Shown here piece after piece: positions 61,260 through 62,302 of a stretch of DNA of 64,000 nt. Every line of letters starts with the position of its first letter. The first letter of the stretch is position 1. Origin of the DNA: Escherichia coli (GTDB lineage Bacteria > Pseudomonadota > Gammaproteobacteria > Enterobacterales > Enterobacteriaceae). The notes beneath the pieces were generated by a model. It was not told the DNA's origin and ran no database searches. It saw only the letters and a list, made by a program, of their open reading frames with translations. Location: the NCBI RefSeq assembly GCF_003334405.1, contig NZ_QOWM01000001.1. One strand, written 5' to 3'. The translations under genes and the position numbers were made by a program.

Positions 61260-61730
61260 TCAGGCGTGTTCTTTCAGCCAGTTCAGCACAACGTCGTGGT
61301 GATTGCTGGTTTTGAAATCGTCAAAGACATGTTCGATTTTGCCATCAGCGTCAATCAGGAAGCTGATGCGATGAATGCCATCGTAGGTTTTGCCCATGAA
61401 GGACTTTTCACCCCAGACGCCGAATTGTTCGCACACCTGGTGGTCCTCATCAGACAGGAGCGTAAAGTTAAGCAGCTCTTTTTCCGCAAAACGGGAGAGT
61501 TTTTCGGGTTTATCGGTGCTGATACCCAGCACATCAACGCCCGCTTTTTTCAACTCATCCATGTTATCGCGTAAGCCGCAGGCCTGTACGGTACAGCCGG
61601 GGGTCATGGCTTTCGGGTAGAAATAAACCAGAACACGCTGTCCCTGGAAGTCGGTCAAATTAACTTGTTCTCCGTCTTGATCCGGCAAGCTAAATTTCGG
61701 TGCGATATCACCGGCTTTCAGTGGATTCAT
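61260..61730 (-). CDS. bcp: thiol peroxidase Bcp (peroxiredoxin Q family)
   Basis: 156-aa ORF MNPLKAGDIAPKFSLPDQDG; peroxidatic Cys in PGCT. Confidence 0.96.
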   Translation of the reverse strand: MNPLKAGDIAPKFSLPDQDGEQVNLTDFQGQRVLVYFYPKAMTPGCTVQACGLRDNMDELKKAGVDVLGISTDKPEKLSRFAEKELLNFTLLSDEDHQVCEQFGVWGEKSFMGKTYDGIHRISFLIDADGKIEHVFDDFKTSNHHDVVLNWLKEHA

Positions 61731-62302
61731 TACTTAACTCCATCCTGTTCATCATGTTGGGAATAATTGACGACGTTAATACTGCCTTGTGCATTGAGTT
61801 CTGTACATAGGGCTTTGAACGCTTGCTCAATATTTGCTGCGTCCGCAGATGCGGGGCTGTGGGCGGTTATCTGAATATGCAACTGCGCAGCCCGTTCATT
61901 TTCAGCAGGTTGCGTGCGCGACACCAGCTCCGCAATGTTCATATGATGCGCGTCGAAAAGTGCTGTGAAGCGTTCAATTAAATGCGGGGAGTCTGCCACA
62001 TCGACCTGAACCCAGACAGATGCTGGCATTGGCGGACGCGGACGCGCCGTCGTGCGCTTCATCACGATTAAAAGATCCAGTTCGGCACCTTTCAACGGTA
62101 ACGTTGATTCAATCAGAGTAATGGCATTCCATGAACCGGAAAGCAGCATAATAAACGTGAACTCTTCTCCCAGCATCGCCAGGCGACTGTCTTCAATATT
62201 ACAGCCGCAACTACTGACATGACGGGTGATGGTGTTCACAATTCCAGGGCGATCGGCACCCAACGCAGTGATCACCAGATAATGTTGCGATGACAGTGTC
62301 AA
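61730..62302 (-). CDS. gcvR: glycine cleavage system transcriptional repressor GcvR (ACT domains)
   Basis: ORF 61730-62368 trimmed to in-frame TTG 62302 (190 aa, (M)TLSSQHYLVITALGADRPG); stop overlaps bcp ATG by 1 nt. Confidence 0.88.
   Translation of the reverse strand: MTLSSQHYLVITALGADRPGIVNTITRHVSSCGCNIEDSRLAMLGEEFTFIMLLSGSWNAITLIESTLPLKGAELDLLIVMKRTTARPRPPMPASVWVQVDVADSPHLIERFTALFDAHHMNIAELVSRTQPAENERAAQLHIQITAHSPASADAANIEQAFKALCTELNAQGSINVVNYSQHDEQDGVK

Follow-up and report, generated by a model that had tools for sequence, protein, structure and literature searches.

The gcvR-bcp locus of Escherichia coli: a conserved TTG start codon of gcvR and a one-base overlap with bcp

The gene pairs trpE-trpD and trpB-trpA are translationally coupled and encode subunits that are needed in equal amounts. 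In both pairs, as in gcvR/bcp of E. coli, the genes lie on the same strand and the stop codon shares one base with the following AUG (UGAUG in the trp pairs). The trp pairs combine equimolar subunits with demonstrated coupling, whereas bcp has a strong Shine-Dalgarno sequence of its own and mapped transcription start sites (TSSs) inside the upstream gene. For the start codon of gcvR, a parallel is found in cya (adenylate cyclase), which likewise encodes a low-abundance regulatory protein from a non-AUG codon behind a normal Shine-Dalgarno sequence, an arrangement that is conserved among relatives. Other E. coli genes, such as cya, use UUG to limit expression. Ghrist and Stauffer reportedly established by experiment in 1998 that gcvR starts with UUG and that its primary TSS lies 27 bp before this codon.

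A GcvR-like protein of V. cholerae with tandem ACT domains (PDB 1u8s) is about 40% identical to E. coli GcvR and aligns with residues 6–183 of the 190-aa protein (E = 5e-39). It is just as short at the N-terminus: chain residue 4 corresponds to residue 28 of the longer, 212-aa open reading frame (ORF) that is considered below. In contrast to E. coli, gcvR starts with ATG and bcp does not overlap it in the Vibrionaceae loci examined. In literature citing Ghrist 2001 and Heil 2002, GcvR is described as an accessory protein that binds GcvA, which turns this activator into a repressor of gcvTHP and gcvB, while glycine disrupts the complex.

The window is a 64,000-nt stretch of an E. coli genome (assembly GCF_003334405.1, contig NZ_QOWM01000001.1). 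It carries gcvR, bcp, hyfA and hyfB in this order on the minus strand; dapA and bamC lie on the plus strand and are transcribed divergently. The two genes under study and their junction are located as follows.

61730–62302, minus strand: gcvR coding sequence, 190 codons and TAA (sequence, ORF list and RefSeq)
61260–61730, minus strand: bcp coding sequence, 156 aa, thioredoxin-dependent thiol peroxidase (ORF list, NF006960 and RefSeq)
61728–61732, minus strand: TAATG junction with the gcvR stop TAA (61732–61730), the bcp ATG (61730–61728) and the shared A at 61730

This is, with high confidence, the canonical E. coli gcvR-bcp locus, in which gcvR is read from TTG 62302 and bcp overlaps it by one base. 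A 1.3-kb query around both genes was 100% identical to many complete E. coli genomes, and the locus was found in all 5426 of 5426 complete E. coli genomes. E. coli K-12 has the same order (bamC-dapA / gcvR-bcp-hyfA) with the same start, stop and 1-nt overlap; its gcvR start region is the same sequence as in the window, AAAGGAATAACCAGTTTGACACTG, and the locus in the window does not differ from that of K-12. For K-12 MG1655, RefSeq gives gcvR (b2479, NP_416974.4) at 2599906–2600478, i.e. 573 nt or 190 aa plus stop, and bcp (b2480, NP_416975.1) at 2600478–2600948, its first base being the last base of gcvR. The PGAP/RefSeq calls for both genes in a clinical isolate are the same as in K-12. The TTG start and the overlap are both already in the reference annotation, and nothing about them is new. 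An earlier note, made from the letters of the window, had placed gcvR at 61728–62302. The upper bound of this span was right, but position 61728 already belongs to bcp as the G of its ATG; the coding sequence covers 61730–62302.

Both proteins were assigned by profile searches. GcvR scored 397 bits against the NCBIfam equivalog NF008612 (cut-off 267), with profile positions 1–189 of 189 aligned to residues 23–211 of the 212-aa ORF, which corresponds to the 190-aa form. Within this form, Pfam ACT_6 covers residues 7–82 (E = 4e-25) and ACT residues 97–166 (E = 6e-5). A cysteine of GcvR in a CGCNI motif is nearly invariant. Bcp matched NF006960 (Bcp/PrxQ, AhpC/TSA fold) over residues 1–155 with 309.9 bits (cut-off 140), and its translation carries the PxxxTxxC motif of the peroxidatic cysteine as YPKAMTPGCTVQAC.

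The start of gcvR was assessed by an alignment of orthologous loci. The comparison set consisted of 80 loci, one per species, drawn from a genome collection via the GcvR protein. Loci were matched through internal peptide patterns; the N-terminal pattern begins with Met, and it was assumed to be back-translated to ATG. Since the matching patterns were internal and the N-terminal Met pattern is assumed to be unable to match TTG, the start codon itself was not selected for. The elements concerned are these.

62300–62302, minus strand: TTG initiation codon of gcvR, followed by ACA CTG TCA TCG CAA CAT TAT (T L S S Q H Y)
62311–62316, minus strand: Shine-Dalgarno sequence AAGGAA of gcvR, its AGGA core ending 9 nt before TTG

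The codon homologous to 62302 was TTG in 82 of 82 aligned Enterobacteriaceae loci, a count that does not stand for independent events because the 80 comparison species all belong to the Enterobacteriaceae and share 85–99% protein identity. In every aligned species, AGGAA stands before the TTG, separated from it by 9 nt. Nearby third-codon positions were 58% identical and have diverged freely, while the TTG was invariant, and judging from this alignment the TTG start is conserved beyond chance. TTG was also found in one Yersiniaceae and one Dickeya locus. At the same N-terminal position, gcvR starts with GTG in Budvicia and with ATG in Photobacterium and Vibrio litoralis, and the GcvR proteins of these three have merely 2–6 residues before the conserved HYLVITA strand. 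The same distance was observed in 16 distant GcvR homologues (31–66% identity) and in PDB 1u8s, whose N-termini all begin 2–6 residues before HYLVITA. The N-terminal peptide of the TTG-started GcvR is TLSSQHYLVITALGADRPGIVNTITR. Among published initiation-site and N-terminomics data, the supplements of Nakahigashi 2016, INRI-seq 2022 and TRAINSPOTTER 2026 contained no entry for gcvR.

A shorter GcvR would result if translation began at codon 10, an in-frame GTG (62275), or at Met43. Codon 10 is indeed GTG in E. coli, and some database entries are annotated with only 177–186 aa. In most other species, however, this codon is GTT or GTC and thus not a conserved start, and no Shine-Dalgarno sequence precedes the GTG. 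Residues 2–9 show coding-type conservation with zero indels, which also speaks against a start behind them. Position 1 of the ACT_6 model aligns with residue 7, so a protein begun at either of these codons would lack part of the first ACT domain; with Met43 as the start, half of this domain would be gone. A downstream start is accordingly considered extremely improbable.

Upstream of the TTG at 62302, the transcription of gcvR is covered by the genome-wide E. coli TSS map of Kim et al. 2012 (PLoS Genet 8:e1002867, Table S1), which also lists the bcp TSSs given below. The 51-nt flanks of the gcvR TSSs in this map match the sequence of the window, where the sites and the adjacent conserved DNA are placed as follows.

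62329, minus strand: main gcvR TSS, 27 nt upstream of TTG (K-12 position 2597901, 27 reads), giving a 27-nt 5′ UTR
62401, minus strand: minor, distal gcvR TSS, 99 nt upstream of TTG (K-12 position 2597829, 17 reads)
62337–62366, minus strand: near-invariant block GTTGTATGCnnGTTTTTTTTATGCTTTCCT, −64 to −35 relative to the gcvR start, including an invariant T8 run
62363–62368, minus strand: two in-frame TTG codons (62368 and 62365), upstream of the main TSS and within the conserved promoter block

The map reproduces starts at 27 nt and at about 100 nt; a distance of 27 bp was reportedly also obtained in the work of 1998. Over the block from −64 to −35, column identity was approx. 0.9–1.0 at all three codon phases in 79 sequences, and the core promoter of the −27 TSS is expected to lie in this block. 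The hexamers may be TTGTAT and TTTCCT with a 17-nt spacer, but the anatomy of this promoter is uncertain because the implied −10 element, TTTCCT, matches the consensus poorly. PgcvR is described in the literature as a low-level constitutive promoter, and the poor −10 match fits this description. A consensus promoter scan returned no minus-strand sigma-70 site, and the real gcvR promoter is therefore a weak match. The promoter predicted by Shimada 2014 (TTAAAA, 18 nt, TCTGAT) implies a TSS near −59 and not at the mapped −27 or −99, and it was discarded. The block also shows a GG-N10-GC spacing (CCGGTTTTTTTTATGC in many species) that resembles a sigma-54 site; this reading was rejected since the GG is replaced by TG in E. 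coli and many other species and the promoter is described as constitutive. An Rfam scan of 60900–62600 yielded no family, and the fold of the gcvR leader gave no significant structure (z = −0.32).

The two upstream TTG codons are the basis of a longer reading. A mechanical ORF call on the minus strand, 61730–62368, comprises 212 aa, begins at the TTG at 62368 and adds MLYACFFYAFLKNNSPLKGITS to the N-terminus. GcvR would then be initiated at 62368 or 62365, i.e. at −66 or −63. Neither codon has a Shine-Dalgarno sequence, and the main TSS lies downstream of both, so that the start codon of the 212-aa form is absent from most transcripts. The minor TSS at −99 does give an mRNA that contains them, and rare initiation there is possible. 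In E. coli K-12, no stop interrupts the frame up to 62368, and several public annotations of orthologues are extended as well (e.g. Salmonella, 212 aa; Klebsiella oxytoca, 211 aa), but the additional sequence does not behave like coding DNA. Identity to E. coli at codon positions 1, 2 and 3 was 0.91, 0.96 and 0.58 for the first 29 codons of the gcvR coding sequence, and 0.83, 0.76 and 0.77 for the 22-codon extension, which thus lacks codon periodicity. While no length changes occurred in these first 29 codons, the length of the extension differed by a non-multiple of three in 30% of the sequences, other Escherichia included. An in-frame stop was present within the extension in 28 of 79 unique sequences, with no ATG, GTG or TTG after it. 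The extension is also outside NF008612, Pfam ACT_6, PDB 1u8s and the distant homologues. Its conserved nucleotides are conserved at all three phases, as would be expected of a promoter, and the upstream TTGs look conserved because they are promoter DNA.

Hence the probability left for the 212-aa protein is minute, and this reading is already effectively refuted. The alignment of orthologues around the start, which had been proposed in the earlier note as a check, revealed no conserved upstream ATG or GTG with coding conservation of the extension. The note had called the 22 additional residues implausible, and the missing periodicity, the frame-shifting indels and the in-frame stops agree with it. 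Its choice of TTG 62302 and a 190-aa protein was likewise confirmed by RefSeq, by the invariant TTG in the alignment, by NF008612 and by the TSS map. Many public orthologue entries with 201–223 aa, e.g. from Salmonella, Klebsiella and Kosakonia, are probably too long at the N-terminus.

At its 3′ end, gcvR runs directly into bcp. The 1-nt overlap between the gcvR TAA and the bcp ATG that was pointed out beforehand is correct in the sequence and in RefSeq, and a junction of this type (TAATG or TGATG) was present in 71 of 81 loci. Four loci have a 4-nt overlap (ATGA) and six a gap of 2–3 nt. Based on this comparison, the 1-nt overlap appears to be conserved beyond chance. One-base overlaps as such are commonplace; hyfA/hyfB, only 1.3 kb away, also has one. 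The arrangement bamC-dapA / gcvR-bcp is kept in Yersiniaceae, Dickeya, Budvicia, Photobacterium and Vibrio, and in the two Vibrionaceae loci gcvR and bcp are separated by 48 and 74 nt. The expression signals of bcp and the 3′ end of the gene are listed here.

61738–61741, minus strand: Shine-Dalgarno sequence GGAG of bcp, 7 nt before ATG, within the gcvR codons Asp-Gly-Val
61743, minus strand: weak TSS attributed to bcp, 13 nt before its ATG (Kim et al. 2012, position 2598487, 11 reads)
62060, minus strand: weak TSS within gcvR, attributed to bcp and 330 nt before its ATG (Kim et al. 2012, position 2598170, 6 reads)
62140, minus strand: weak TSS within gcvR, attributed to bcp and 410 nt before its ATG (Kim et al. 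2012, position 2598090, 5 reads)
61217–61242, minus strand: stable 11-bp hairpin without a T-run, 18 nt past the bcp stop

The GGAG and the ATG of bcp were invariant across the aligned loci, and the surrounding GATGGAG was nearly invariant with third-codon positions included. Over the last ~35 codons of gcvR (~100 nt), synonymous identity was 0.72–0.87 compared to a gene mean of 0.66. This elevated constraint suggests embedded signals, and expression signals of bcp appear to be contained in the 3′ end of gcvR. A candidate promoter, TTAACG-17-CATGAT, fits the TSS at −13; as Enterobacter species carry a 3-nt deletion in its −10 element, it is regarded as a possibility. The internal bcp TSSs, each backed by very few reads, may instead reflect RNA processing. 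The hairpin behind bcp folds with −23.6 kcal/mol (z = −4.25, none of 200 shuffled sequences being as stable) and is likely the 3′ end or a stabiliser of bcp-containing transcripts.

No terminator was predicted at the gcvR/bcp junction, where there is no room for one. Since none can fit, transcription from the gcvR promoter very probably continues into bcp, and partial co-transcription of both genes is likely. Termination-reinitiation or translational coupling at TAATG would be possible. If the two genes formed a strict operon, the gcvR promoter would be the sole source of bcp transcripts and bcp translation would be obligatorily coupled at TAATG. An overlapping stop and start is the classical arrangement for coupling, as generally known for trpE-trpD and trpB-trpA, and in addition to the 1-nt overlap in 71 of 81 loci and the 4-nt overlap in four more, the adjacency of the gene pair out to the Vibrionaceae and the junction, where a terminator is neither possible nor predicted, are in line with it. 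Yet bcp has its own invariant and well-spaced GGAG and ATG, whereas gcvR has a weak TTG, and the dependence of bcp translation on that of gcvR would, as these sequence signals argue, be partial at most. Bcp is a fairly abundant protein and GcvR a scarce one, which misfits a 1:1 coupling. TSSs inside gcvR were assigned to bcp, the synonymous constraint is raised over the last ~100 nt of gcvR, and the distance of 48–74 nt in Vibrionaceae also speaks against a strict operon. In a promoter catalogue the two genes appear as separate single-gene operons, and published operon lists also keep them apart; no entry for gcvR or bcp was found in the SMRT-Cappable-seq supplements. Taken together, the strict operon is unlikely.

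Partial co-transcription with largely independent translation signals of bcp is the preferred reading, and it qualifies two further claims of the earlier note. Co-transcription and coupling had been deduced from the overlap; the conserved overlap and the lack of a terminator site are in favour of this, and bcp's own GGAG and ATG, the internal TSSs and the separate operon entries are against it, so that the deduction is partly supported. As for the proposed coupling of a glycine-cleavage regulator with a peroxiredoxin, the overlap is real and translational coupling would be a possibility, but a functional link is unsupported. GcvR and Bcp are not known to have a functional or stoichiometric relation.

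The best account of these data is the following. gcvR is most likely translated from TTG 62302 via AAGGAA on an mRNA with a short leader that starts mainly 27 nt upstream. The weak non-AUG start together with the weak constitutive promoter most likely keeps the GcvR level low. The dose of GcvR presumably matters because GcvR is an ACT-domain anti-activator that acts by binding GcvA: a regulator titrating a partner would need a set and low level, and a weak promoter plus UUG would be the simplest route to it. Because the gcvR stop and the bcp ATG have one base in common, transcripts that reach the end of gcvR continue into bcp. There, the GGAG and ATG of bcp itself would account for most of its translation, possibly with help from ribosomes terminating at TAATG, and the weak TSSs inside gcvR may give bcp some independence from gcvR. 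A more far-reaching reading is a selected device for GcvR:GcvA dosage, with TTG or GTG in Enterobacterales, ATG in Vibrionaceae and a tightened junction, and in addition a functional link behind the ancient adjacency of gcvR and bcp, e.g. a redox input from Bcp to GcvR via the cysteine of the CGCNI motif. This reading seems quite improbable.

With respect to annotation, the curated form of 190 aa with its TTG start is correct and the mechanical longest-ORF call (212 aa) is mistaken, which is chiefly a matter of annotation hygiene. The locus has little significance beyond that, and what is left is modest: the hint at dosage control and the bcp signals in the 3′ end of gcvR. According to the loci compared, a non-AUG start of gcvR is kept across the Enterobacterales, and the TTG probably has a dosage-limiting role. 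A weak start codon that is conserved order-wide on the anti-activator GcvR would thus point to dosage control.

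Many GcvR orthologues are entered in public databases with lengths of 201-223 aa (P0002, P0009, P0061, P0010, P0006 and others from the homologue search), compared to 190 aa for the glycine cleavage system repressor started at TTG 62302. The Salmonella enterica entry, which represents a cluster of 810 sequences, has 212 aa and the one of Klebsiella oxytoca 211 aa. The DNA of the genera with long entries contains the same AGGAA-N9-TTG, and judged from this sequence the longer forms are probably over-extended start calls. Within the protein, a short cysteine motif was located:

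about 62195-62209: CGCNI motif, GcvR residues 32-36

One cysteine of the motif is nearly invariant and the Asn-Ile following it is invariant in homologues down to 31% identity. Given the conserved adjacency of gcvR to the thiol peroxidase gene bcp, this cysteine is a curiosity; any functional link is purely hypothetical.

Upstream of gcvR, two stretches were considered:

62345-62352: T8 run within the conserved block 62337-62366, the gcvR core-promoter region
62380-62450: dapA-gcvR intergenic region, highly conserved in the alignment

The T8 run is kept in all 77 aligned Enterobacteriaceae sequences as well as in the Yersiniaceae and Dickeya loci. A 1-bp deletion somewhere in the gcvR promoter (gcvRp) was reported for two endpoint strains of an adaptive-evolution study, and a homopolymer in the promoter spacer would be an obvious candidate slippage target. 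In the intergenic region, the flank given by Kim et al. for the dapA transcription start matches, when reverse-complemented, the sequence surrounding the distal gcvR start, 99 nt upstream of the TTG. Therefore, the promoters of dapA and of the -99 gcvR start overlap or are arranged back-to-back.

The opposite end of gcvR is conserved beyond its protein sequence:

61733-61840: last ~35 gcvR codons, raised synonymous codon identity

Synonymous codon identity reaches 0.72-0.87 in these codons versus a gene mean of 0.66 (80 species), and third positions are conserved in CAAGGCAGTAT(A/T)AAC and GATGAACAGGATGGAG. This conservation suggests that the coding sequence of gcvR also carries promoter or ribosome-binding signals for bcp. 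One candidate bcp promoter, TTAACG-17-CATGAT, agrees with the mapped transcription start 13 nt upstream of the bcp ATG, yet it is broken in Enterobacter.

One further database entry, P0030, is a 331-aa 'hypothetical protein' assigned to the fungus Astraeus odoratus, with 89% identity to GcvR and AhpC-TSA/Redoxin domains in addition. The entry resembles a GcvR-Bcp fusion call and most likely originates from enterobacterial contamination, with a eukaryotic gene caller reading through the 1-nt gcvR-bcp overlap.

Downstream of bcp, the following features were found:

61217-61242, minus strand: 11-bp hairpin with a GCUU loop, 18 nt past the bcp stop
60390-61046: hyfA, ORF list, 218 aa
58372-60390: hyfB

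The hairpin is very stable (-23.6 kcal/mol, z = -4.25) and was missed by the terminator scan because no T-run follows it. Located before the hyf promoter region, it may serve as a 3'-end element, a stabiliser or a non-canonical terminator. The RefSeq CDS of hyfA (618 nt, 205 aa) is shorter than the ORF-track form. The hyfA stop and the hyfB start share exactly one base, at 60390, which illustrates how common such a gene arrangement is.
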